Of a stretch of DNA of 64,000 nt, positions 2,775-15,798 are shown in pieces. Below the pieces are notes generated by a model, which did not search any database, was not told the DNA's origin, and saw nothing but the letters and a program-made list of their open reading frames with translations. The stretch lies in contig OZ242320.1 in the NCBI GenBank assembly GCA_965208125.1, positions 4,192,001 through 4,256,000 of the forward strand, in the 5' to 3' direction. Origin of the DNA: Candidatus Latescibacterota bacterium. Lineage in GTDB: Bacteria > Latescibacterota > UBA2968. How positions within the stretch are numbered: position 1 is the stretch's first letter; every line of letters starts with the position of its first letter. The position numbers and the translations under genes were made by a program.

Positions 2775-5700
2775 ATGAACGATTCTATCTCATCCCATTC
2801 GACATCAAACGATGTGCAGCCAGCCCCGGGATCCGAAGGAAAACTCGACCTACTGAAGACCTTGCTGCGCGAGATGTTTCAACTCGACCGCGGCGATCTG
2901 GACTTTGGCCTGTACCGCATCATGAACCTGAAGACCGCTGAGATCGCGGCATTTCTTGACAATGATTTGTTGCCACAGGTGCAAGAGAAGCTGAACCTCA
3001 CGGACAATCAAGAGCGCGTCAGGCTGGAAGAGGATCTAAAGGACGCCAATCAAAATGCCAGACGGTTGGGAGTTGATCCCGATACTACACCTTTAGTTCA
3101 GGAGTTGCGAGAGAGGCTTGCCGAGATGCAAAAAGACGCGGACTCTGAAGCCGATGTGTACAACCATCTCGCCAATTTTTTCGCACGCTATTATGCTGAA
3201 GGCGATTTTATCTCGCAACGCCGTTACTCAAGCGGTGGCCGCTCGGCCTATCTGATTCCCTACGATGGAGAGGAAGTCAAGTTACACTGGGCCAACGCAG
3301 ACCAGTACTACGTCAAGACGACAGAGAACTACGCCTCTTATGTCTTCACAGTTGGTACAGGCGAAGCAGAGAGGCGCGTGCGTTTTGAGATTGCGGCAGC
3401 CGATAACGAGAGGGACAATATTAAGGAAGCCGACAATAAGCAACGTCGTTTCGTAATCTCAGGTGATGATGCTATTGCTATTGAGGATGGTGTGCTCATT
3501 GTGCGCTTTGAGCACCGGCCGCTGACCGATAGCGAGAAGCAAACGTGGACGGGCAATGGTGTTAGACAACAGGGTAGGATCAACGAGACAACGGTCAAGC
3601 AGATTCTCAAGGCGGTAGCCTCCGACTGGCTGGCTCTGCTGGCTGTACCGGCACCAACAGACACGAATGAAGAGCGCACGCTGCTTGAGAAACACGTCGA
3701 GCGATACACGGCTAAGAACAGTTTTGACTACTTCATCCACAAGGACCTTGGTGGTTTCTTGCGCCGTGAGTTGGATCTGTACCTGAACACAGAAGTGCTG
3801 AACTTAGACGATCTGGAACAGGGCGATGCCCTTCGGCTGGACCGGGCACTGGCGCGCGTACGTGCAACCCGTCACATCGGTGGGAAGATCATCGATTTTC
3901 TGGCGCAACTGGAAGACTTTCAAAAGCAACTCTGGTTAAAGAAAAAATTTGTCCTCGAAACTAACTGGTGCGTCACTTTGGATCGCGTCCCGGAGGCTTT
4001 ATATCCCGAGATTGCTGCCAACGCGGCGCAGTGTGAGGAATGGGTTGAGTTGTTTGCCGTTGACGAGATCCCAGGCGATCTGATAAACGGAGGTGCGACC
4101 TGGAATCATCCGCCGAGTGTAGATTTCCTCAAGGCCAATCCCTATTTGGTGCTGGATACACGGCATTTTGACAGCGACTTCAACGATCAGTTGTTGTCAG
4201 CACTCTCCGACGCTGGACCGCTGGACGAACAGTTGGACGGGCTGCTGGTGCATGGCGAGAATTTTCAGACGTTGAATCTGCTACGAGCGCGATATCAGGG
4301 GCAGGTGGATTGTGTCTATGTCGATCCTCCTTTCAATACTGATGCGTCTCCCATCCTCTACAAGAATGGATATAAGTCCTCAACCTGGGTATCCCTCATG
4401 GAGGGTAGCCTTCGCGCTGCTCGAATGCTGCTTACGGACAGTGGCATTCTAGTTGCCGCAATTGATGATGAACAACAAAAAGAGCTGAGTTTTCTGCTTT
4501 CTACTGTCTTCAACAAGAAACTACTTGGGACAATACTGGTCCGTACAAACCCTTCAGGGCGACCAACACAAAGCGGATACTCTGTAGCACACGAATACCT
4601 TTTGTATGCAGGTGAGGGGCAAGACGCCGCAATTGAACGAATGCCACCGACAAAGGAACAGGCAGCGCGCTTCTCAAAACGAGACGAAAAAGGGGTGTTC
4701 GAGTGGAGAAACTTACGACGAGAAGGGTCAAATTCAGATCGAACGGCACGTCCCGCACTCTATTATCCTATATACCTGAAAGGCAAGGCTATACGTATTC
4801 CTCAAATGACCTGGAATTCAGTAAACGAAGAATGGATTATAGAGGAAAAACCACATGCCAGAGAACAGGTAGTTTTTCCAGACAACGAAAAGGGAATTCA
4901 GAAGACTTGGCGCTGGGAAGCAAAGACAGTGATAAGTGCTTTGCAAGACATTGCTGTACGCAAGGATCGCTCTGGCCGAGATTATGTTTACTACAAAAGA
5001 CGTCCTCATAATAAAGGTGTGATGTCTATGTCTTGCTGGTTTGATGCAAAATACTCATCGGTTGAACACGGTACAGTGCTTCTCAACGCGATGTTTGGAA
5101 AGACAGTTTTCTCATACCCGAAATCCATTCACGCGGTGATGGATTCAATATATACGGCGGGTGCTTCGAGGACAGATGCACAAGTTCTTGATTTCTTCGC
5201 TGGTTCCGGTACCACTGGCCATGCGGTCATCAACTTCAACCGCGAGGACGATGGACAGCGCAAGTATGTTCTCGTGGAGATCGGCGATTACTTCGATACA
5301 GTTCTGTTGCCACGGATAAAGAAGGTCGTCTATTCACCGGACTGGAAGGATGGCAAACCAATTTCGCGCAAAGGAGTCACGCAGTTGTTCAAGTGCATCC
5401 GGCTGGAATCCTACGAAGATACGATGGACAGTCTTGAAGTGACACCACCTTCAGAAGCACAGCAAAATTTGTTGACCGATAATCCCGCGTTGGCTGAGGA
5501 TTATCGGTTGCGCTACGCACTCGGTGAAGAGACGGCTGGTAGCGCGTGTCTGTTGGGCAAGGCGTTCGCCGACCCTTCCACCTACACACTCACCGTCGTA
5601 CGCGATGGTGTGCGTCGTGAAGTCCAGATTGATCTGCCCGAGACTTTCAACTACTTGCTCGGTCTGCGCGTGACATCCCGCCAGCGAATTGACGGTGTGC

Positions 5701-5954
5701 TCGCGATCACAGGTACTGACCCCGAGGGGCGCAATTGTTTGATTCTCTGGCGCAATCTCGACAAGACGGACTGCGCCGCGCTGGACGCCTGGTTTGATCA
5801 CAACCGTGAGCAATTCGGGTCACTGGACATCATCTACGCCAACGGCGATCAAACTCTGAATGCCATGCAACAGCCCGGCGATAATTGGACTGCTAAGACC
5901 ATTGAGTCGATTTTTCGTGAATTGATGTTTGGAGAGACCAGCGATGAGCGATAA
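2775..5954 (+). CDS. mod: Type III restriction-modification DNA methyltransferase (Mod, beta class)
   Basis: 1059 aa; motif IV YVDPPFN precedes the TRD and motif I DFFAGSGTTG; N-terminal DLDFGLYRIMN and DYFIHKDLGGFL typical of long type III Mod; followed by res. Confidence 0.9.
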   Translation: MNDSISSHSTSNDVQPAPGSEGKLDLLKTLLREMFQLDRGDLDFGLYRIMNLKTAEIAAFLDNDLLPQVQEKLNLTDNQERVRLEEDLKDANQNARRLGVDPDTTPLVQELRERLAEMQKDADSEADVYNHLANFFARYYAEGDFISQRRYSSGGRSAYLIPYDGEEVKLHWANADQYYVKTTENYASYVFTVGTGEAERRVRFEIAAADNERDNIKEADNKQRRFVISGDDAIAIEDGVLIVRFEHRPLTDSEKQTWTGNGVRQQGRINETTVKQILKAVASDWLALLAVPAPTDTNEERTLLEKHVERYTAKNSFDYFIHKDLGGFLRRELDLYLNTEVLNLDDLEQGDALRLDRALARVRATRHIGGKIIDFLAQLEDFQKQLWLKKKFVLETNWCVTLDRVPEALYPEIAANAAQCEEWVELFAVDEIPGDLINGGATWNHPPSVDFLKANPYLVLDTRHFDSDFNDQLLSALSDAGPLDEQLDGLLVHGENFQTLNLLRARYQGQVDCVYVDPPFNTDASPILYKNGYKSSTWVSLMEGSLRAARMLLTDSGILVAAIDDEQQKELSFLLSTVFNKKLLGTILVRTNPSGRPTQSGYSVAHEYLLYAGEGQDAAIERMPPTKEQAARFSKRDEKGVFEWRNLRREGSNSDRTARPALYYPIYLKGKAIRIPQMTWNSVNEEWIIEEKPHAREQVVFPDNEKGIQKTWRWEAKTVISALQDIAVRKDRSGRDYVYYKRRPHNKGVMSMSCWFDAKYSSVEHGTVLLNAMFGKTVFSYPKSIHAVMDSIYTAGASRTDAQVLDFFAGSGTTGHAVINFNREDDGQRKYVLVEIGDYFDTVLLPRIKKVVYSPDWKDGKPISRKGVTQLFKCIRLESYEDTMDSLEVTPPSEAQQNLLTDNPALAEDYRLRYALGEETAGSACLLGKAFADPSTYTLTVVRDGVRREVQIDLPETFNYLLGLRVTSRQRIDGVLAITGTDPEGRNCLILWRNLDKTDCAALDAWFDHNREQFGSLDIIYANGDQTLNAMQQPGDNWTAKTIESIFRELMFGETSDER

Positions 5955-6843
5955 CCGATACCAGTCACAAGATCATCTCCCATTCTCGCAGCGTTACGTT
6001 TATGAACCTTTACCAGAGCCGATGCAATTGGAGGAGCTTTCGGATGATCTAAGGCGAGAAATATGGAACGCAATGCGAAGATACCTTAAGAATGTACTTA
6101 TGAACATATATACAGGTGCTAGTGGCTACCATAATGAAAGAGGATATCAACTTTTCGAAAATATCTTAGGTGAGATATTGCGAGAACCTGAAGATGAAAT
6201 CGATACTTCTCATGATGGAATACTTCATCAGTTCAAATCATTGATTCTGCGAGACAATTTCAATGTGGTTCTCGACCTTATTGAAATCATAGTAAACAGA
6301 GGGTGGCAAGACGAGGAATTTATCAACCGTATCTGTAAATCGTTTGAAAGTTATGCTGCTGCTTACTATCTGGATATGTCACGCCGTCCCTATCAATTTT
6401 TTCCGCGCAGTAATAAAGCGCAAGGTGAAGCAACGCGAGCAGCTATCAAAACGATCCACGATGGCGGTATGAAAGGTGCAGAGACGCATTTGCGCCAGGC
6501 GGCAGAACATATCAACACACGACAATTTGGAGATTCAATTAGCGATAGCATCCACGCGGTTGAATCTGTTGCTCGGCAAATTGATCCAAAATCAAAAACC
6601 CTTGGTCCCGCGCTAAACTCCCTCGAGAAAGCCGGTTTGGTCAAGCATCCAGCACTCAAAGAAGCGTTCGCTAAGCTGTATGGCTATACAAGTAACGAAC
6701 AAGGGATTCGGCACGCGCTACTCGACAAGAACTCGCCGGATGTTGACCTGGACGAGGCCATGTTCATGTTTGGAGCCTGTGCATCCTTTGCTGCCTATCT
6801 CGTAAACAAACACCATAAGATGCAAGAAGAGGATGACAAATGA
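5944..6843 (+). CDS. AbiJ-like abortive-infection protein (AbiJ N-terminal domain plus HEPN-like helical C-terminus)
   Basis: FSQRY..EPLP..MQLEELSDDLRREIWN N-terminus; C-terminal AVESVAR..TLG.AL..HPALKEAFAKLYGYTS..GIRHA; overlaps the mod stop and the res start (ATGA). Confidence 0.65.
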   Translation: MSDNRYQSQDHLPFSQRYVYEPLPEPMQLEELSDDLRREIWNAMRRYLKNVLMNIYTGASGYHNERGYQLFENILGEILREPEDEIDTSHDGILHQFKSLILRDNFNVVLDLIEIIVNRGWQDEEFINRICKSFESYAAAYYLDMSRRPYQFFPRSNKAQGEATRAAIKTIHDGGMKGAETHLRQAAEHINTRQFGDSISDSIHAVESVARQIDPKSKTLGPALNSLEKAGLVKHPALKEAFAKLYGYTSNEQGIRHALLDKNSPDVDLDEAMFMFGACASFAAYLVNKHHKMQEEDDK

Positions 6844-9800
6844 CCCGCCTACAAAGTCGCCTCGCTCTGCATCGCTTTATCTGTCGGGAGTTCGGCTACG
6901 ACGATATGGACAGGATGCTCGAACGGTTGGACTATGCCCAAGGCGAACTCGTCTCAGAAGGTACGAGCGACTATGCTCAGGCACTGAGTCCGCCCCCTGC
7001 ACGCGCACGCGTTACCCTCGACCAGTTTGCCGAATACGACGCCAACATCGCGGCGCACAGCCGCCAGTTGCGTATGACAGAAGAACACGGTCGGACCTGG
7101 AAACCCCACCAATACCTCGCCCTGCTGTTCACCGAACATTATTTGCACCGCTATTTCGACGATCCCGATTCCCTGTGTGCCGACTTGAACGATGAGAAAG
7201 TCAGCCATCGTCCTACCTCGTTCTTGCCGGATTATACAGTAGAAGACCTGCACATACTCGCTTTCCAGAGCGCGACGGGTTCTGGTAAAACGCTCCTTAT
7301 GCACGCCCATATTCTGCAATACCAGCACTATCTGGAACGTGCGGGCAAGCAGCTAAACAATATTGTGCTGGTGACGCCGAATGAGCAGATGTCCGTGCAG
7401 CACGAGCGCGAAATGCAAGAAAGCGGTCTGCGGGCACGGCTGTTCTCCAGCGAGGCCAGTTCCGATTTGTTCCAAACCATCGAGATCATTGACCTGAATA
7501 AACTGGCCGAGAAAACGGGCGTGAAGCGCGTTGCAGTGACGGATTTTGGCGACGACAATCTGGTTCTAGTTGACGAAGGGCACTTGGGTGCATCGGGCAA
7601 TGTTTGGCGCGAACGCCGCCGGGAGTTGGCGAGCGGTGGCTTTACTTTTGAGTACTCCGCGACCTTCAACCAAGTAGCAGGTACAGGCAGGGACAACGAC
7701 CTGCTAAACGCCTACGGCAAGTGCCTGTTATTCGACTACTCGTACCGTCGATTTCACGCAGATGGCTACGGTAAGGACTACGCCATCCTGAACCTGCCTG
7801 GTGGGGTGCAGGACGAGAACAGCAAGATGTACCTACTGGGTTGCCTACTGACCTTCTACCAGCAATATCGTATCTGGCAGGACAAGGGCGCGTTGTGGAA
7901 GGCGTTCAATCCGGCAAAACCACTGTGGGTATTCCTCGGCAAGACAGTAACGGGATCGAGCAAAGCGGACCGGGAGACCCGATCTGACGTTATCCGCATC
8001 TTAAAGTTTCTCGGTTGGATGCTGGCCCACAGGGAAGATGTACAGCACATGATCCAACTCCTGTTAGCCGGAAAATCGGGATTGCTCGATAGCACCGGCA
8101 ACGATTACTTTTCTGGTCGCTTTTCTCATTTGCCCAGCGGAGTAGACCTCTACGCCGATCTCTGCGAGACCCTATTTCACGGATCGGGGCGGCTGCACGT
8201 CGTCTATCTGACCGCAGGCGAGGGTGAGTTACATCTTCGCACCGCGGACCATGATCCTTTTGGCGTGGTCAATGTCGGGGACTCGGCGAAGCTCTACAGC
8301 CTGCTCACGGAAGAATCTAAACCCGATTTCGACGTTGACCGAGAGATGGGTTTTGCCGCACGGCTATTCGCCGATGTAGATCGTCAAGACTCAACCGTGA
8401 ACATCGTCATCGGCGCGCGTCGATTCATCGCGGGCTGGAACTCATGGCGCGTGAGCACAATGGGGCTGATGCACGTCGGCGTGGGCGAAGGTCCTGAAAT
8501 CATCCAGATGTTCGGACGCGGTGTGCGCCTGAAGGGCTATAACATGAGCCTGAAGCGGCACCGCGAAATTGAAGGGGAACTGCCGGAGGATAGCGATGAA
8601 CTGGCAGAATTAGAGAAGCTATATATCTTTGGGCTGCGTGCCAACTACATGCAGTCCTTCCGAGATCTTCTGGAAAAGGAAGGGATGCGCGCAGAACAAG
8701 AGACATTTAGCTTGCCCACCACCTGGAACTTTGCCAAAAAGACTGACCTGAAACTGATCCGACTCAAGGATGATCGAAAATACAACCTCTCCGCTGAACG
8801 CCCCATCTTGCCGGGACCAAGGGATGGTGGTAGCTCCGTTGTGACACTGGATCTGTATTCACGGCTTCAATCCGTGGCATCCAATGGCGCTGCATTCAGT
8901 GAGGAAACAGAACCAAATTCGGTCAACCTCACGTCACACGCCGCCTTCTTCAACACAGCCCGCATTTACGAGCGGCTGTTGTCGCGCAAGCAGCAAAAAA
9001 GCTGGCACAATCTGGTTATTGAGCAACGGACGGTGGAGCAGCTATTGCAAAGTCAGGATTGGTACGAACTCTATATGCCGCCAGATCGGTTGAATCCCAC
9101 CGGATTCAGGCAGATGCGTGAACTGGAGAATATCGCCGTTGATTTGATCACCGAATACGCCGATGACTTCTGGCGCAGGCAACGCAGACGTTGGGAACAC
9201 GGTGAACTTGAGGTCGTCACTCTGAATGAGGATGATCCAAATAATGCCGTAACCTACGATTTATCTGTGGATATAACCGAAGATCAGTTAGTCAGGGATG
9301 CGAGTGAACTGGCGTACAACATCCGCGAAGGCAGGTGCGACGAATTAAAAAACTGGTATGAGCACTTGAACATCGGCATCATCATATCACAGGCTCATGC
9401 GTATCAGCCCTTGCTACATGCCAAAGAGGACCGCGTTGTTACGGTTCAACCTGTTCCCTTGGATGCAAACGAGAAGCGCGTTGTCGATCGGCTGGAAGAA
9501 CTGGCTCGGACAGGCGATCCCTGCCTGCAAGGCAAAGAGTTGTTTCTAATTCGCAATCTGACGCGTGGTCGGGGGGTGTCCTTTTTCGACGACTTCGGTT
9601 ATTACCCGGACTTCATCGTCTGGTTGAAGGACGACGAACAACAGCATGTTCTATTTCTCGATCCCAAGGGCTTGAGCAGGTTCGGCCAAAGAGCACGTAA
9701 AAAAGTGCAACTGCATCACGAAATTGTAGAAATTGAAGAGCAAGTGCGCGAGCACGACCCGGACCTGTATCTGCGTGCCTATATTCTGTCTGTCACACGA

Positions 9801-9929
9801 GCCGCGGAAATTGATGATGGCGGGCGTTCCCCGAGCGACTGGAAAGCAGATGGTGTTTACTTCCTGAACGAGAATGATTGTCTGCAACAGGTCATCACAC
9901 ACGCGCTTGATGGCGACGCGGTGACATAA
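6840..9929 (+). CDS. res: Type III restriction endonuclease subunit (SF2 helicase plus PD-(D/E)xK nuclease)
   Basis: Walker A ATGSGKT, Walker B VDEGH, SATF, QMFGRGVR; nuclease YPDF...LDPKG. Confidence 0.9.
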   Translation: MTRLQSRLALHRFICREFGYDDMDRMLERLDYAQGELVSEGTSDYAQALSPPPARARVTLDQFAEYDANIAAHSRQLRMTEEHGRTWKPHQYLALLFTEHYLHRYFDDPDSLCADLNDEKVSHRPTSFLPDYTVEDLHILAFQSATGSGKTLLMHAHILQYQHYLERAGKQLNNIVLVTPNEQMSVQHEREMQESGLRARLFSSEASSDLFQTIEIIDLNKLAEKTGVKRVAVTDFGDDNLVLVDEGHLGASGNVWRERRRELASGGFTFEYSATFNQVAGTGRDNDLLNAYGKCLLFDYSYRRFHADGYGKDYAILNLPGGVQDENSKMYLLGCLLTFYQQYRIWQDKGALWKAFNPAKPLWVFLGKTVTGSSKADRETRSDVIRILKFLGWMLAHREDVQHMIQLLLAGKSGLLDSTGNDYFSGRFSHLPSGVDLYADLCETLFHGSGRLHVVYLTAGEGELHLRTADHDPFGVVNVGDSAKLYSLLTEESKPDFDVDREMGFAARLFADVDRQDSTVNIVIGARRFIAGWNSWRVSTMGLMHVGVGEGPEIIQMFGRGVRLKGYNMSLKRHREIEGELPEDSDELAELEKLYIFGLRANYMQSFRDLLEKEGMRAEQETFSLPTTWNFAKKTDLKLIRLKDDRKYNLSAERPILPGPRDGGSSVVTLDLYSRLQSVASNGAAFSEETEPNSVNLTSHAAFFNTARIYERLLSRKQQKSWHNLVIEQRTVEQLLQSQDWYELYMPPDRLNPTGFRQMRELENIAVDLITEYADDFWRRQRRRWEHGELEVVTLNEDDPNNAVTYDLSVDITEDQLVRDASELAYNIREGRCDELKNWYEHLNIGIIISQAHAYQPLLHAKEDRVVTVQPVPLDANEKRVVDRLEELARTGDPCLQGKELFLIRNLTRGRGVSFFDDFGYYPDFIVWLKDDEQQHVLFLDPKGLSRFGQRARKKVQLHHEIVEIEEQVREHDPDLYLRAYILSVTRAAEIDDGGRSPSDWKADGVYFLNENDCLQQVITHALDGDAVT

Positions 9930-9952
9930 TTTTAGTTGATTTTTACCAGATC

Positions 9953-9983
9953 AACCGGCTTTTGCCGGTTTTTTTATTTTTTT
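9953..9983 (+). terminator. Rho-independent terminator after res
   Basis: AACCGGC-TTTT-GCCGGTT followed by a long T tract. Confidence 0.8.
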
Positions 9984-10040
9984 CTCCTGTTTAGGCAGCG
10001 AAAATCGAAAATGCTGCCGATGATCGTTTTTAGATTTTTA

Positions 10041-10069
10041 TTGACAAGAATATGATTAACACATATATT
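10041..10069 (+). promoter_or_regulatory. Sigma70-type promoter pointing toward the CBASS operon
   Basis: TTGACA (10041-10046), 17-nt spacer, TATATT (10064-10069); GGCAGC..GCTGCC palindrome at 9994-10018 just upstream. Confidence 0.6.
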
Positions 10070-10227
10070 CGAAGGCTTCTTAACTCTAAAGCATTTTTCT
10101 CCCCGCTATGCAGTACCTTCTCCCCTACTGAAACTTCTCGTTTTTTTATTTGCAAAGACATATGTGCTTGAAGTTTAGGCTTATGACCCCTCGGATAGTC
10201 TGATGGAACATTTTTCATATTTCTTTA

Positions 10228-10302
10228 CAAAAAACCTCGGCAGCTGCAACTGCCGAGGTTAGAAGTCGCCGGAACATCCGGCAACCCCTTTTATAGTAAG
10301 AT
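10228..10302 (-). ncRNA. Candidate ~75-nt small RNA antisense to the CBASS leader
   Basis: 12-bp hairpin at 10262-10288 pairs fully only on the minus strand (G-U pairs); then a perfect 11-bp stem at 10233-10260 plus U6; own promoter at 10309-10338. Confidence 0.5.
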
Positions 10303-10308
10303 GGTCGG

Positions 10309-10338
10309 AATATACGGTCACATCGGGGATTATGTCAA
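10309..10338 (-). promoter_or_regulatory. Sigma70-type promoter for the candidate sRNA
   Basis: Minus strand TTGACA (10338-10333), 18-nt spacer, TATATT (10314-10309). Confidence 0.55.
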
Positions 10339-10573
10339 CGAAAATCAAATTTGGAAGGAGGGATAACATATCTGATTTGATGTCTGACTGTAAAGCTGCT
10401 GCATAGGCAAGCCGGGTCTGCGGCCACCTGGGAACCGAAGCGTCGCATATTCTGATGATATATACATATTACCTGCCGGTAAGATGCTTAGAGTTGCAGG
10501 AATGATGTGCTGAAGAACCCCATAACGATTTGCTAATTGAAGAACAACCGGCATTACCTTATTGAGGAAAATA

Positions 10574-11581
10574 ATGACAGAGGAAAGACAATATCAACAA
10601 GGACCGAAACGCCGCATTCTTTCTATTGACGGTGGGGGTATTCTCGGCACCTTTCCGGCGGCCTTTCTTGCAGAACTGGAACAGCATCTCGAACATCCAA
10701 TTGGTGCGTATTTCGACCTGATTGCCGGTACATCAACCGGCGGGATTCTCGCCCTCGGACTGGCTATGGGCCTTCCTGCCTCAAAACTTCTTGACCTTTA
10801 CGAAAAACGCGGGCCTGAAGTCTTCGGCCAGAATCATAGTGCGCTACCAGGATTTGTCTATAGAACACTTCGTGGTATCCAGTGGCTCTATCGACGGAAA
10901 TACGATTCTAATGCGCTGTGTGGTGCCCTTCAAGACGTCTTCGGCAACAAGCGCATCGGCGAAGCAACGACCCGCCTTATGGTTCCTGCATGGAATCCGG
11001 TTGAGCGGAGCGTTTATATCTATAAGACAGCCCATCATCCCCGTCTGAAGAATGATTATCGATCCCCGGCCATTGATGCCGCCCTTGCCACATCCGCTGC
11101 GCCAACCTATTTCCAACACCACATCACGCAGCACGATGTTGGGCTCCTTGATGGCGGGATCTGGGCGAACAACCCGATCGGCATTGCCGCGGTTGAAGCC
11201 ATAACCATGCTGGACTGGCCAAGAGATTCCCTTCACATCCTGAGCTTGGGTTGCCTGGCAGAGACCTACACCATTCTAAAATGGGCCGGAATCGGAACCC
11301 TTGGTCGGAATATCCTGCGGTTGTTCATGGATGGTCAGTCGCACGGTGCGATGGGCATTGCCAAACTAATCACCGGCCACGAACACGATCGACGTGCCAT
11401 ATATCGGATCGATCACACCGTCCCCAAGGACACTTACAAGATGGACGACACGCGGGTTATCCAAGAATTGAAAGGTCTCGGTCACACGAAAGCTCGTGAT
11501 CGACAACCCGTTCTTGAACCCGTTTTCTTTGATCAGCCGGCGGATGAATTCACGCCGGTTTACCAACTTAAGAAGGAGTAA
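10574..11581 (+). CDS. capV: CBASS patatin-like phospholipase effector (CapV-like)
   Basis: SIDGGGILG, GTSTG nucleophile elbow, SAAPTYF, DGGIWANNP; stop overlaps the CD-NTase start; GAGGA SD before ATG 10574. Confidence 0.88.
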   Translation: MTEERQYQQGPKRRILSIDGGGILGTFPAAFLAELEQHLEHPIGAYFDLIAGTSTGGILALGLAMGLPASKLLDLYEKRGPEVFGQNHSALPGFVYRTLRGIQWLYRRKYDSNALCGALQDVFGNKRIGEATTRLMVPAWNPVERSVYIYKTAHHPRLKNDYRSPAIDAALATSAAPTYFQHHITQHDVGLLDGGIWANNPIGIAAVEAITMLDWPRDSLHILSLGCLAETYTILKWAGIGTLGRNILRLFMDGQSHGAMGIAKLITGHEHDRRAIYRIDHTVPKDTYKMDDTRVIQELKGLGHTKARDRQPVLEPVFFDQPADEFTPVYQLKKE

Positions 11582-12789
11582 TGATGATGGTTGATACAAA
11601 TAGTTATTCAAGATTTTTAGAGAAAGTTGCGGAAACTATCGACATTCCGCCGAGCAAATATCAAGACGCGGTTGATCGCTATCAGGTTGTTGGCAAATAT
11701 CTTGAGGATGGAGAGTATCCGGGTTGCACCGGTGAACTCAGCATTTATCCGCAGGGGTCCTTTCGCCTTGGCACTGTCGTCAGGCCCATAAGAGACGGTA
11801 TCGAAGCCAGCTACGACATTGATCTTGTGTGTGAATTGCCGATAGAAAAGTACCGGACAAGTCCCCGATCCGTGAAATTGATGGTTGGTGATCGCCTCAA
11901 GGAACACGGCACATACCGCAAGTTGCTGGATGAGGAAGGCAAACGGTGCTGGACACTTGAGTATGCCGAGCAGGATGAGATTGGGTTTCACCTTGACGTC
12001 CTACCGTCGATTCCTGACCCCCGATCTCCTTTCGATACCGCCATCGCTATTACGAACAAAAAAGAAAATGTTTATACGTGGTCGGCCAGCGATCCCAAAG
12101 GCTACGGCCTTTGGTTTGACCGCCAGAACCAAGCAGCATTTGAACTCGCACGAACCGACCAGAAGCGGGCCATTCTGACGCAGAGTTCCCATATCTATGC
12201 GAGCATTGACGATGTTCCGGATGCGCTCGTCCGTACGCCACTCCAGCGTTCTATCCAACTCATGAAGCGCCACCGGGATATAATGTTCGACAATGAACAG
12301 AACAACAAACACGCACCTATCTCGATCATCATCACTACGCTCGCCGCGCAGTTCTACCAAAACGAGCCTGACATCTACTCGGCACTCTACAGTATTGTCA
12401 CTCAGCTACACGCACATGCAGTTCTCGTTGAAAACGGAACTGTAAATCGAAGCCTGGCCCCCCACAGTCCCATTAAGCGCAGTCCTGATGGTGGGTGGTA
12501 TATTGGTAATCCGGTTAATCCCGAAGAGAATTTCGCCGACCGTTGGCATGAGGATAATCATGCGCGTGCAAGGGCCTTTTTCCATTGGGTTGCGGCGTTG
12601 AAAGAAGCCCTCTTCGATATTTTGGAAGAGCCACACCTCAATGTTCTGCGCGAACGGCTTTCTGCGACGCTCGGTGCGGCGGTTGCCTCCAAACATTTTG
12701 ACCTGATCGCATCTGGCGTGGCTGCGGAGAGTAGCGTTCCGAGAATCCATATCTCAAAGTCGACGTCGACGAGGCCGTGGAGAGCATAA
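11581..12789 (+). CDS. CD-NTase (cGAS/DncV-like cyclic oligonucleotide synthase)
   Basis: PQGSFRLGT...YDIDLV, FHLDVLP, LQRSIQLMKRHRD, PISIIITTL, NPVNPEENFADRW; flanked by patatin and E2 genes. Confidence 0.9.
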   Translation: MMMVDTNSYSRFLEKVAETIDIPPSKYQDAVDRYQVVGKYLEDGEYPGCTGELSIYPQGSFRLGTVVRPIRDGIEASYDIDLVCELPIEKYRTSPRSVKLMVGDRLKEHGTYRKLLDEEGKRCWTLEYAEQDEIGFHLDVLPSIPDPRSPFDTAIAITNKKENVYTWSASDPKGYGLWFDRQNQAAFELARTDQKRAILTQSSHIYASIDDVPDALVRTPLQRSIQLMKRHRDIMFDNEQNNKHAPISIIITTLAAQFYQNEPDIYSALYSIVTQLHAHAVLVENGTVNRSLAPHSPIKRSPDGGWYIGNPVNPEENFADRWHEDNHARARAFFHWVAALKEALFDILEEPHLNVLRERLSATLGAAVASKHFDLIASGVAAESSVPRIHISKSTSTRPWRA

Positions 12790-13524
12790 ATGAAAGAAGA
12801 ACTTGTTGCCGAGATTGCCGAATTGCAATGTGTACACCGTGGGCTGACGGCAATCACGAGAGCAGAAAACGCGACAATATTATCAGGTCCATTGCCGTTT
12901 GAGGCATCGGCTAATGGACATAGCACAATCGTAGAGTGCTTCGAAATTGAACTCACCATCCCCGATATTTACCCGGAGAATCTTCCGTACGTCCGTGAAA
13001 CCGGTGGGAAGATCGATAGCGATTATGATCACCTGAACGGGGACGGTACGTTATGCCTTGGGATCCCTATCGAAAAGCACCGCGTCTTCTGGCAACAACC
13101 CTCACTCTTGGGATTTGTAAACCGTCTCCTCATTCCGTACTTCTTCGGATACAGCCACTACAAGAAATATGGTACGCACCCCTTTGGTGAGGCAGAACAC
13201 GGTGCAGTAGGCATCGTTCAGCACTATATGGATACTCTTGAATTGGTCGACGAACGAGCGGCATTGGCTGTCATTGCCTTCCTTATTGAGCATGGTTACC
13301 GGGGACACCATTCCTGTCCGTGCGGCAGCGGCAAAAAAGTTCGCAAATGCCACGGTCAAGCTCTGCGAGACCTCCACAAGCTACACACGGCACGTACCTT
13401 ACAGAACGATTTTGTTGCGTTACTTGATGTTTGTATTGCTATGATCAAGTCGAAAAATCTACAAATTCCTGAGCCGCTTCACCGTCAAATTCGGCGCATT
13501 CTCAACAAAATGATTAGACGGTGA
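12790..13524 (+). CDS. CBASS E2-only ancillary protein with SEC-C Zn-binding motif
   Basis: E2 pattern FEIELTIPDIYPENLP...HLNGDGTLCLG (putative catalytic Cys); C-terminal CPCGSGKKVRKCH SEC-C motif; starts immediately after the CD-NTase stop. Confidence 0.8.
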   Translation: MKEELVAEIAELQCVHRGLTAITRAENATILSGPLPFEASANGHSTIVECFEIELTIPDIYPENLPYVRETGGKIDSDYDHLNGDGTLCLGIPIEKHRVFWQQPSLLGFVNRLLIPYFFGYSHYKKYGTHPFGEAEHGAVGIVQHYMDTLELVDERAALAVIAFLIEHGYRGHHSCPCGSGKKVRKCHGQALRDLHKLHTARTLQNDFVALLDVCIAMIKSKNLQIPEPLHRQIRRILNKMIRR

Positions 13525-13701
13525 ATGGCTTGTTGAAACTAATTTGGAAAATTTCGTCCCTGTCTATAACGCATACCTGCCTTGTCGAGTCCGCAAGAAG
13601 GTGAACAGCTTGAGATACAGCCAGTTGTAAACCATCCATAGTATAGGCTATTACAGTAATGCACTCTTGTCGATATTTAGACCAAATAAGAGGGACCTTG
13701 C

Positions 13702-13893
13702 ATGTCTGATCAATTGGATAAAAACTGGCGTGACAACATTGCACTCGTCACGAAGACCGCGGCAAGCCTTGTGCCCGTTATTGGTGGGCCGCTGGCCGAA
13801 CTGATTACCGAAGCAATTCCTCTATACAGGCCGATGAGTTTGTCTTGTCGGTCCATCCCTTTACCCCTATTTTCAAGGGTGCTCTTTACTTGA
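13702..13893 (+). pseudogene. Probable 5' remnant of a hypothetical gene
   Basis: SD GAGGG; MSDQLDKNWRDN...SLVPVIGGPLAELITEAIP looks protein-like, then degenerates. Confidence 0.4.
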
Positions 13894-13976
13894 ATTTACA
13901 TCATAACTCCGATCTGAATGACGACGGCGACCCTGATCCCAATTTTGCAATAGTAAAGAAAAAAAAGGACAGAACG

Positions 13977-14291
13977 ATGATTGACCAAACAATCCTAGAC
14001 AACATCATCAGTCGTATTGTGGAAGTGGCTGATCCCGAGCGGATTATCCTTTTTGGGTCTGCTGCCCGAGGTGACATGAACCGCCATAGCGATGTCGATC
14101 TGCTCGTTATCGCGGATGTCGATGATCGCCTCGCCGCAATGGCGCAAATTCACCGGAGATTGCGCGGAAGGCATCTGGCAGTTGATGTGATCGTGGTTAC
14201 GCCAGCAGATGTCGCCCGATACGGCAAGAGCCATGCCTTAATCATTAAGCCGGCATTGCAGGAAGGAAAGGTGGTGTATGAAGCAGCCTGA
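13977..14291 (+). CDS. Minimal nucleotidyltransferase (MNT antitoxin)
   Basis: IILFGSAARGD...SDVDLLVI..., VDVIV, EGKVVYE; 104 aa. Confidence 0.88.
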   Translation: MIDQTILDNIISRIVEVADPERIILFGSAARGDMNRHSDVDLLVIADVDDRLAAMAQIHRRLRGRHLAVDVIVVTPADVARYGKSHALIIKPALQEGKVVYEAA

Positions 14292-14361: not shown

Positions 14362-14378
14362 GGACGCTATCGTCTGGC

Positions 14379-14430
14379 AAAAAGAAAACGGGTAAAGAAT
14401 ATTATAATTCTCTACCCGTTCTTTTTTCTT
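14379..14430. terminator. Probable bidirectional terminator
   Basis: AACGGGTA.AGAAT / ATTCT.TACCCGTT stem flanked by A-rich and T-rich tracts, between convergent genes. Confidence 0.55.
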
Positions 14431-14591
14431 AAACCGATACCCTCACGTCAATCAGGGCTCAACTCAATATTGAGCCGACAGCCTACGGTCACACTATATT
14501 TCGCCAATCATATCCTTGACCTTACATACACCATACTCGCTTATCTTCCAGGTCAATCCAAGTCGTGAACCGATCTTTATCGGTGTATTAC

Positions 14592-15494
14592 TCAGTTCGG
14601 CGCTTGCGCAAAAGACGTGATAGATGACGTGTACGCATGGCCTCTTGCCAGTCTTCGCTTCTCGAGACTACTACGAAGTTCATCATACTCCCAATTCCCG
14701 CTCTCGGCCTCCTCACGCCACTTCATGTTGTATGTCTCTCGCTTGCAAACGTCCAGGTGTTTCGGGGCCAGCGTGAGCCACGTCTTCCCTGAAGTAACAC
14801 TTCCGAAGCCGTTAAAGCATGGGGAGTGCAGGTAGAGCAAGTTCTTCGCCATGTACGTCAGATAGTCTTCTGAGCTGTACCTGGCTCCATTGTAACTCAG
14901 TTCGTTGTTGCAGAAGATGGTTTTGTGTCGGCAAAGTCGGTCCCTGGTCTCCCATGGGCTCAGGATCAGTCCTTCAGAGTCACATAGAAACGCATTGTAC
15001 GAGGGGTCAACCATCACCCACTTCGAGCGAGAAGTACACCAAACCACCGTAACTACATGATTGTCATAGTCGTATGGATTCAGAGGATTCAGAGACACTA
15101 TTCGGCTCTGCAACCCCAGAGATAGGCAGGCCTCTGTTAGCACGATAGACAGCATGTAGCAGTTGATGCCATAGTCCTCACCTTTGCCGAACGAATAGCT
15201 CAGAAGTCCCGAAGCGTTCATGGGCAGTACTTTGCAGACCTCGGGCAGCGCTTTGCTTATGTCACCTCTGTGGCATATGCCTTCAGACATCCACTGCATT
15301 AAGTTCAGGATTTTAGACCAGTCGTCTCCACCTCCTGCAACCTGATCAAGTCTATATGCTTCGCGCAGACGCTCGAGTTCAGGATGGGAGAGTTCATATT
15401 GGAAGCCAGGTGCCAATTCGTCTGGTAAGGAATCAAACTCGTCAAACAAGCGTAAGAGCCCGCAGTTTAGTCTAAACTGATAATTCATCGTCAC
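14592..15494 (-). CDS. Transglutaminase-like domain protein
   Basis: Cys-His-Asp pattern GINCY...NHVVT...WVMVDPS. Confidence 0.75.
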   Translation of the reverse strand: MTMNYQFRLNCGLLRLFDEFDSLPDELAPGFQYELSHPELERLREAYRLDQVAGGGDDWSKILNLMQWMSEGICHRGDISKALPEVCKVLPMNASGLLSYSFGKGEDYGINCYMLSIVLTEACLSLGLQSRIVSLNPLNPYDYDNHVVTVVWCTSRSKWVMVDPSYNAFLCDSEGLILSPWETRDRLCRHKTIFCNNELSYNGARYSSEDYLTYMAKNLLYLHSPCFNGFGSVTSGKTWLTLAPKHLDVCKRETYNMKWREEAESGNWEYDELRSSLEKRRLARGHAYTSSITSFAQAPN

Positions 15495-15730
15495 TACCTC
15501 AAGATATGTTGATTCTCTTTTCCCATTTCATCTACCTACGTTATTCACGCACCAGTTCAGTTATACCATAAATATACAGGTACTAAACGAAAGTGTGCAA
15601 TCGTATTTTCGGAGAAGGAATTTGTAAACGGGGCTTAAAGACCTAAGATAGAATCAATCTTTTGGATCCTCGCATTGAGACATTTTGAAGGGATTAAATT
15701 TTGCAATAATCTTTATACGCCAAAATGCCA

Positions 15731-15759
15731 TTGCAAACCCCTGTTTTTTCGACTAAATT
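15731..15759 (+). promoter_or_regulatory. Possible sigma70 promoter upstream of the AAA stub and the plus-strand gene array
   Basis: TTGCAA, 17-nt spacer, TAAATT in an AT-rich intergenic region. Confidence 0.4.
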
Positions 15760-15798
15760 GCAGATAATTGTAAATATTGAAAGACAAAGGTGCATAAT

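Follow-up and report, generated by a model that had tools for sequence, protein, structure and literature searches.

The spacer in front of a CBASS operon of this Candidatus Latescibacterota bacterium holds a discrete module of ~410 nt (10041-10447), made of two facing promoter-like sequences, a candidate small RNA on the strand opposite to the genes and, at its end, a candidate pseudoknot of the type that closes tmRNA. We read it as a portable promoter-leader module, in which the embedded antisense small RNA and the tmRNA-type pseudoknot would gate the expression of the defence operon; to this reading as a whole, including that the module is self-contained and horizontally shuffled between defence cassettes, we give a probability of roughly 0.45. 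Since the conserved module precedes CBASS here and a different defence gene, Upx, in two congeners (hereafter G002 and G007), it may represent an RNA-based switch of immune genes. All positions are those of the window, which is the whole stretch of 64,000 nt that was analysed, and the features are collected in Table 1.

The spacer and its place in the defence island

The spacer has a length of 645 nt (9930-10573), is single-copy in its 5.75-Mb genome and lies within a defence island, downstream of the genes of a type III restriction-modification system and upstream of CBASS. The CBASS operon (10574-13524, plus strand) combines an effector, a CD-NTase and an E2-like Cap2 and is, by PADLOC and Pfam, of type II with the E2-only composition. 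The AbiJ-like gene is inserted between mod and res, and both its ends overlap the neighbouring genes; in G002, a 288-aa ORF, which had no match to a PADLOC family, adjoins the Res gene. Judging from its sequence, the intrinsic terminator of the Res gene marks the module as a unit of its own, apart from the R-M operon. Between this terminator and the gene-sense promoter there is also a 6-bp hairpin (9995-10019, GGCAGC .. GCTGCC, with a 13-nt loop).

On the other side of the operon, an MNT-type nucleotidyltransferase gene (13845-14291) was observed 3' of CBASS, and up to 14592 it has no obvious HEPN partner; in G007 the counterpart of this region, 70% identical, is located immediately 5' of the module (L099 10737-11320). 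A palindromic element of ~50 nt follows (14376-14427), which also closes the Upx cassette in G002 (L098 4598-4650, in both orientations) and is present in G007; it resembles REP/MITE-like boundary elements that occur in multiple copies. The depth of the sequencing runs climbs several-fold from 14212 onward, and many contigs end there. Further on, a transglutaminase-like gene on the minus strand (14592-15494) is flanked by the segments 14485-14574 and 15532-15766, which are 97% and 78% identical to G007, respectively, with 15694-15766 also matching a third congener, G008 (88%). From these identities, the two segments are probably the conserved chromosomal flank of an island hotspot.

Table 1. 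Features of the window in and around the spacer, with strand and main attributes.
Feature	Position	Strand	Remarks
Type III methyltransferase gene (mod)	2775-5954		upstream of the spacer
AbiJ-like gene	5929-6843		upstream of the spacer; Pfam AbiJ_NTD4; PADLOC PDC-S32, E 4.5e-58
Type III restriction subunit gene (Res)	6840-9929		upstream of the spacer; PADLOC/Pfam
Intrinsic terminator of the Res gene	9953-9970	+	7-bp stem and T-run (region scan)
P_sense, promoter-like TTGACA-17-TATATT	10041-10069	+	from scan; start predicted near 10076
C-rich box CTTCTCCCCTAC	10116-10127	+	alignment A5; ten invariant columns TCTCCCCTAC
Gene-sense hairpin, then U-run	10186-10226	+	possible attenuator; directly before the terminator of the small RNA
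Candidate small RNA, ~75 nt	10226-10302	-	ends in a U-tract
Terminator hairpin of the small RNA	10233-10260	-	12 pairs (7 G-C), loop of 4, then T-run
Hairpin 1 of the small RNA	10262-10288	-	12 bp
5' tail of the small RNA	10289-10302	-	variable
ORF of 21 aa	10301-10366	+	
P_as, promoter-like TTGACA-18-TATATT of the small RNA	10309-10338	-	-35 at 10338-10333, -10 at 10314-10309
Small ORF	10332-10406	+	
Variable spacer	10339-10395	.	67-71% identity, with indels; holds AAGGAGG and the ends of the small ORFs
AAGGAGG	10355-10361	+	read directly
Candidate H-type pseudoknot, tmRNA-terminal type	10406-10447	+	last 42 nt of the module; loop GAACCGAA between
Pseudoknot stem S1	10412-10417 with 10426-10431	+	invariant save one U-A to U-G change
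Pseudoknot stem S2	10419-10424 with 10442-10447	+	two double compensatory changes, window versus G007
Own leader of the CBASS cassette	10448-10573	+	SD GAGGA before the ATG at 10574
Residual -10, CATATT	10465-10470	+	remnant of the G008 promoter
Site complementary to the 5' end of the small RNA	10478-10486	+	9 nt
Patatin phospholipase effector, CBASS	10574-11581	+	PADLOC Effector, 4.4e-99
CD-NTase, CBASS	11581-12789	+	PADLOC Cyclase, 8.8e-118
E2-only Cap2-like protein, CBASS	12790-13524	+	PADLOC E2, 3.7e-81

Facing promoter-like sequences and a candidate minus-strand small RNA

P_sense and P_as each match 11 of the 12 positions of the promoter consensus used in the scan, which may not be the consensus of the host phylum. 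A match of at least 11/12 occurred in 32 out of 2000 dinucleotide shuffles of the 645-nt spacer, and one on each strand in none of the 2000; in the region scan, 6 promoter-like sites were found against 1.7 ± 1.3 expected. The original prediction had placed convergent TTGACA/TATATT promoters on the plus and the minus strand, and both were found at those positions; moreover, the scan showed that the layout of P_sense, facing promoter and terminator is kept in all three genomes. The counterparts of P_sense, assigned by position, read TTGACT-16-TATATT both in G007 (L003 1902-1875) and in G002 (L004 1897-1870), and those of P_as, detected by scan together with the minus-strand terminator of a short RNA opposite the leader, read TTGACC-16-TATATT in G007 and TTGACT-16-TATATT in G002. 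When the window is compared with the two Upx-linked copies, the -10 of P_as is conserved at 6/6 positions, the -35 at 5/6 and the promoter spacer (16-18 nt) at 56-75%. In a variant contig assembled from an RNA library, none of the differences listed falls in the hexamers of P_as and six fall in its promoter spacer.

The segment that P_as would transcribe folds better in the minus sense. As an 83-nt minus-sense RNA it reached -42.6 kcal/mol (z -7.4), a value equalled by 0 of 200 shuffles, and formed a 12-bp hairpin with three G-U pairs followed by the terminator; the plus-sense fold of the same segment reached -31.9 kcal/mol (z -5.1) and its 12-bp hairpin was interrupted. The three G-U pairs of hairpin 1 are kept in all copies; read in the plus sense, they would turn into A-C mismatches. 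In the same way, both changes in the terminator arm of G002 and the variant 10260 T>C of the RNA-library contig result in G-U pairs in the minus sense only. One compensatory change, from G-C to A-U, was also observed in hairpin 1 between copies; the covariation counts are small, the module being confined to three related genomes and a few strain variants. On these sequences, the wobble pairs favour the minus sense for the ~75-nt RNA. Identity between the window and the Upx-linked copies amounts to 88-91% in the terminator and 86-89% in hairpin 1, the two hairpins being separated by 2-5 nt, and drops to 4/10 in the 5' tail of the RNA. The minus-strand RNA of ~75 nt that had been predicted, with a 12-bp hairpin (three G-U pairs) fully paired only in the minus sense, is thus upheld as a sequence design and conserved in two other species; the terminator described there, with 11 bp in its stem and 6 nt in its loop, corresponds to the hairpin that came from our scan as a stem of 12 pairs with a 4-nt loop.

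An Rfam scan and a covariance model had been proposed as checks, with different outcomes. Rfam 15 returned no family at the gathering score in permissive scans over 2.5 kb and 300 nt, the best matches below threshold being 22.1 bits, for a plant miRNA model on the terminator hairpin, and 14.9 bits, for alpha_tmRNA. The covariance model of the small RNA (R1), run over 151 genomes of the phylum, scored 90-102 bits in the genome of the window (G000), in G002 and in G007 only. At E values up to 0.01, 13 of these 151 genomes were matched; the 15 other matches (22.5-29.5 bits) proved on inspection to be generic terminator hairpins and were discarded. The pattern of hairpin 1 retrieved no locus in either metagenome or viral contigs. 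In two further congeners, G018 and G016 (L128, L130, L139 and L140), we observed a repeat unit of ~90 nt beginning with AGCAGAGAC, with two hairpins and a U-tract, which occurs twice per genome and may be an unrelated small RNA or repeat family.

Close to where the native CBASS mRNA is predicted to begin, the leader site at 10478-10486 can form 9 bp with the 5' tail of the small RNA. This pairing, found post hoc, gives a duplex of -10.8 kcal/mol, which was equalled by 2 of 1000 shuffled tails; in the Upx copies the pairing of the tail was not significant, being equalled by 91 and 765 of 1000 shuffles. The modelled contact of the tail with the CBASS leader is to be taken as a lead only. Predictions of duplexes between the entire small RNA and the leader were uninformative, because long G+C-rich sequences always pair.

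Distribution of the module and its junction with the CBASS cassette

In a comparison with 61 related genomes, the core of the module (10187-10440) matched G007 and G002 at 74-75%, amid otherwise unrelated DNA, G008 matched 10451-10574 only, and the remaining matches were confined to the stretch of the Res terminator. Including the genome of the window, the element is carried by 3 of the 21 genomes of the genus and by 3 of the 168 of the phylum. An element profile searched over 99 loci, 80 of which are CBASS, matched in the window, G002 and G007 only, and searches of E. coli genomes and of the records of phages and plasmids gave no match to the module, or chance matches of 24 nt only.

In G002 and G007 the module precedes not CBASS but an Upx gene encoding 1225-1242 aa (PADLOC PDLC02221, E 1e-172 to 1e-176). 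The view that it is a CBASS leader as such had to be abandoned on this account, and the module ends 3 nt before the CBASS cassette. The gene on the 5' side changes too, with a different type III Res gene in G002 and the MNT-like region in G007. Upstream of a more distant Upx homologue (G043, 29% identity) the module is absent. G002 and G007 are 85% identical to each other from Upx to ~30 nt past their gene-sense TTGACT-16-TATATT; since this shared stretch ends beyond the gene-sense promoter, we take the unit to run from P_sense to 10447. In G002 (L098 coordinates) 138 nt separate the right end of the module from the start of Upx, in the window 127 nt separate it from the start of the patatin gene, and G007 aligns with no offset.

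The comparison with G008, the closest CBASS relative, locates the junction. The window is 93% identical to G008 over 10451-13822, so that the homology of the CBASS cassette begins 3 nt past the end of the module. In G008 a TTAACA-17-TATAAT promoter precedes CBASS and, because the homology with the window begins inside the spacer of this promoter, the window keeps a weakened -10 and has the end of the pseudoknot in place of the -35. Directly 5' of CBASS, and in the same orientation, G008 carries two genes (L017 1592-2638) for an HTH protein of 119 aa and an M78/IrrE peptidase of 222 aa, which we call CapH/CapP-like from their Pfam domains and position only. No CapW, CapH or CapP gene adjoins the CBASS operon of the window, whose neighbours are the type III Res and the MNT-like gene; their absence, already noted in the original prediction, was confirmed, and it is the module that stands where G008 has its CapH/CapP-like pair. 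Judging from the mosaic junctions, the module has replaced the CapH/CapP protein regulators together with the native -35. Since it took their place, the CBASS operon probably depends on it, while CBASS transcription might also start without the module, given the residual -10 at 10465-10470. The window and G008 form a natural comparison pair for the regulation of CBASS.

A possible mode of action

In the mechanism that we propose, P_sense (10041-10069) would start a long untranslated leader, which would pass a weak hairpin with a U-run (10186-10226) and then the region opposite the small RNA gene, before crossing the pseudoknot (10406-10447), the short leader of the cassette and the CBASS genes. 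The facing promoter (10338-10309) would produce the ~75-nt RNA, ending at its own terminator (10260-10227), and this would limit the operon both by head-on transcription and by full antisense pairing on the transcripts that read through; a further contact may form between its variable 5' tail and the beginning of the cassette mRNA (10478-10486). Direct observation extends to the sequence features and how they are conserved, to the strand-specific pairing, to the mosaic junctions and to CapH/CapP having been lost; we infer promoter firing, transcript read-through and repression by the small RNA.

A sense attenuator downstream of the antisense region, of the pT181/pIP501 type, was not found in the leader: the sole sense hairpin with a U-run lies upstream of that region and in the window it is worth -6.5 kcal/mol (z -0.3, like shuffles), against -15.7 in G007 and -14.8 in G002 (z -2.7). 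Thus, attenuation of the type described for plasmids does not fit. In the first section of the leader, the C-rich box at 10116-10127 is the sole well-conserved part.

The same features could instead belong to independent small transcription units, which share the island by mosaic recombination only and do not regulate the neighbouring operon, a possibility that we consider unlikely. In such a case the P_sense RNA would stop at 10186-10226, the small RNA would be trans-acting and CBASS would be transcribed from the residual promoter past 10450. The two terminator-like structures, which stand back to back as in convergent genes, the residual -10 and the build of the small RNA (hairpin, terminator and U-tract), which is typical of trans-acting small RNAs, all speak for it, and the module is optional, given that the CBASS of G008 and the Upx of G043 do without it. 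However, independent units would not easily account for a module whose end is separated by 127-138 nt from the start codon of a defence operon in the same orientation (as measured in the window and in G002, with G007 aligning without any offset), nor for its having replaced, here, the native -35 and the protein regulators; moreover, the sense hairpin, at which the P_sense RNA should stop, is weak in the window.

A pseudoknot resembling the 3' end of permuted tmRNA

The regulatory reading proposed above gives a role also to the last block of the module (10396-10447), which is conserved to the same degree as the body of the small RNA. In this block lies the candidate H-type pseudoknot, a feature absent from the original prediction, and the G-U pairs of its stems S1 and S2 are compatible with the plus sense only. 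The sequence of S2 differs among the window, G007 and a phage copy, and pairs at the same place in each. Among the strain variants listed, 10422 G>A would disrupt a pair of S2, and no change of its partner is among them; the nested folding of the pseudoknot region was no better than that of shuffles.

A pattern scan for the pseudoknot in metagenome contigs retrieved 3 loci. Two of them are related copies of the phage type, in which S2 has an entirely different sequence and still pairs; the third lies within a CAG-rich sequence and was set aside as chance. In viral contigs the pattern occurred at one locus, which is the same contig as L100. L100, one of the two metagenome contigs, is a phage contig with ribonucleotide reductase genes, and there the motif constitutes the 3' end of a genuine permuted tmRNA, which scored 57.6 bits with alpha_tmRNA (cut-off 50) and 46.2 bits with tmRNA_permuted and was called as a permuted tmRNA by ARAGORN. 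The gene (L100 1829-2081, minus strand) adjoins those for ribonucleotide reductase; ARAGORN gave 'tag not identified', and a frame ending in ..LALAA* before the pseudoknot looks by eye like a real tag. The phage region around it had no match in phage records. Marine phages carry two-piece tmRNA, according to a portion of a published account (PMC9004378).

The module shares with permuted tmRNA (Rfam alpha_tmRNA, RF01849) the H-type layout and the letters GCCGGGU .. ACCUGG .. AAC.GAA, and in both cases the pseudoknot is at the 3' end of its unit; the spacing from GGGG to the pseudoknot is 81 nt in the module and 83 nt in the phage tmRNA gene. The matches of the module copies to alpha_tmRNA are in the same sense, but weak (14.9 bits in the window, 17.9 in G007 and 19.4 in G002), and remain far below the cut-off of 50. 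The tRNA-like domain (acceptor stem and T-arm) is absent, ARAGORN finding none in the window, L003 and L004, and tmRNA_permuted (RF04321) had no match in the module copies at E values up to 5; both searches detected L100 as a positive control. Because of the weak matches and of the missing tRNA-like domain, we speak of a likeness to one part of tmRNA rather than of family membership. A possible tag frame ends with ..KAAA* at 10404-10406 in the window, has no stop there in G002 and G007, and may not be conserved; finally, unlike that of permuted tmRNA, the pseudoknot of the module is followed by a protein-coding operon. The tmRNA of the host is a standard one-piece gene located elsewhere in the genome (188.7 bits), and was rejected as the source of the element since there is no sequence similarity. 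A second model, R2, searched in 40 genomes with CBASS relatives, gave one match of 29.8 bits, which is neither a tmRNA by ARAGORN nor the motif by eye and was discarded.

The likeness raises the question of whether the module is merely a decaying remnant of a permuted tmRNA gene, or a tmRNA-derived attachment site, whose promoters and hairpins would be left over or due to chance, with no regulatory effect. We regard this as quite unlikely. The genuine phage tmRNA that shares the pseudoknot (57.6 bits, called by ARAGORN), the weak matches in all three copies and the parallel spacing (81 nt, against 83 in the phage) would be natural for a remnant, as would the change of cargo exactly at the 3' end of the pseudoknot, and tmRNA genes serve as integration sites of islands, as stated in parts of two articles (PMC11915505; PMC4383910). 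Against it, there is no tRNA-like domain by ARAGORN or by tmRNA_permuted (E up to 5), the one-piece tmRNA of the host is dissimilar to the element, and the attachment site was dismissed because the pseudoknot occurs only once in the window and the flanking ORFs that were scanned include no integrase. Moreover, the left half of the element pairs best in the opposite sense, and the structure-preserving changes, together with the intact -10, argue for selection and not for decay.

Small open reading frames and environmental contigs

Besides these elements, the original prediction had pointed to a strong Shine-Dalgarno sequence and to a 21-codon ORF on the plus strand. Both AAGGAGG and the ORF are where it had put them, but neither they nor the second small ORF are conserved in the copies of G002 and G007, in which indels (5, 2 and 3 nt) disrupt the reading frames, and no ORF is common to the three copies of the module. 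It follows that a SymE/SymR-like layout of type I toxin does not apply, and for the suggestion of a module captured from a deleted toxin gene no conserved ORF was found in the copies. A type I toxin-antitoxin locus, or its remnant, with the small RNA as antitoxin and a small plus-strand ORF as toxin, is highly improbable: a convergent or divergent small RNA beside small ORFs (10301-10366 and 10332-10406) and a strong SD-like AAGGAGG recalls such loci, but ORFs and AAGGAGG vary as just described and the encoded peptides are not hydrophobic.

A search of sequencing runs listed 23 of them, from 14 studies, and many are labelled sponge metagenome. Contigs of two runs from other samples, presumed to be of DNA (a kind that was guessed), span Res, module and CBASS. 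The RNA-library contig mentioned above (2325 nt, ~88% identity) covers 10230-10812 and continues leftward with 1735 nt of unlike sequence, and 16 among its differences listed fall in 10339-10395; such contigs carry no strand, ends or level, and the RNA library may hold DNA. Among the RNA-library contigs, those of run X23 do not cover 9928-11151 and those of run X22 do not cover 9928-10131, a lack of cover which, for contigs, cannot show absence. In one further RNA-library contig, with a depth of 5.5, position 11243 is followed by two other letters and then by 12295. The 1051 nt left out extend from within the patatin gene into the CD-NTase gene, and the join may reflect either a deletion variant or a chimeric assembly.

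Comparison with known regulators of defence operons

According to the portions available of three sources, the described regulators of CBASS and of most other defence operons are the proteins CapW, CapH/CapP and CapK/CapS (10.1101/2022.04.27.489752, PMC11662680, PMC13373217). The module resembles them as a small unit directly 5' of diverse defence operons and exchanged between them, and the CapH/CapP-like pair of G008 even occupies the exact place of the module in the window. By contrast, these proteins are DNA-binding repressors with sensor partners, whereas the module has no conserved protein or evident signal input and would act via RNA or transcription.

Leaders controlled by antisense RNAs are known from the plasmid countertranscripts of the pT181/pIP501 type, from lambda OOP and from type I antitoxins such as SymR. 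Our candidate is similar in being a short and highly structured RNA, with its own promoter and terminator, inside or opposite a leader and with the promoters facing each other. It differs in lacking both an attenuator downstream of the antisense target and a conserved toxin ORF, in being linked to defence operons rather than to replication or toxin genes, and in the addition of a tmRNA-type pseudoknot.

As regards RNA in defence, crlRNAs and solitary repeat units have been described, by which CRISPR-Cas represses the promoters of defence systems (10.1101/2024.12.27.630466, from the part of the text available). The likeness lies in a small RNA beside defence genes that would lower their expression; as far as that part describes them, crlRNAs have repeat-like hairpins around a spacer-like stretch and are found in cas operons, whereas the hairpins of the module are 2-5 nt apart, with no spacer-like segment. 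Among the matches listed in the literature on CBASS and antisense RNA or promoters, as far as their visible text goes, no antisense RNA controlling CBASS is described, and the term 'cis-antisense' is absent among the matches listed for small RNAs in anti-phage defence, with the same restriction to excerpts. In the searched literature on the regulation of defence, again as represented by excerpts, the RNA-based exception is that of the CRISPR-like RNAs (10.1101/2024.12.27.630466).

In its most far-reaching form, our proposal would be that of a portable regulator made of RNA only: a promoter-leader cassette whose 3' pseudoknot was built or borrowed from two-piece tmRNA and which brings its own antisense small RNA, with a fast-evolving tail re-tuned to the mRNA of each cargo, able to swap between CBASS and Upx and to replace CapH/CapP. 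We put this forward as a possibility that is more doubtful than the regulatory reading itself. Should the module be inactive, it would still be a clear case of defence cassettes re-joined at precise non-coding junctions. If, on the other hand, it does act in the proposed manner, a small, exchangeable RNA cassette could hold toxic immune operons in check, and a part of tmRNA would have been reused outside trans-translation.
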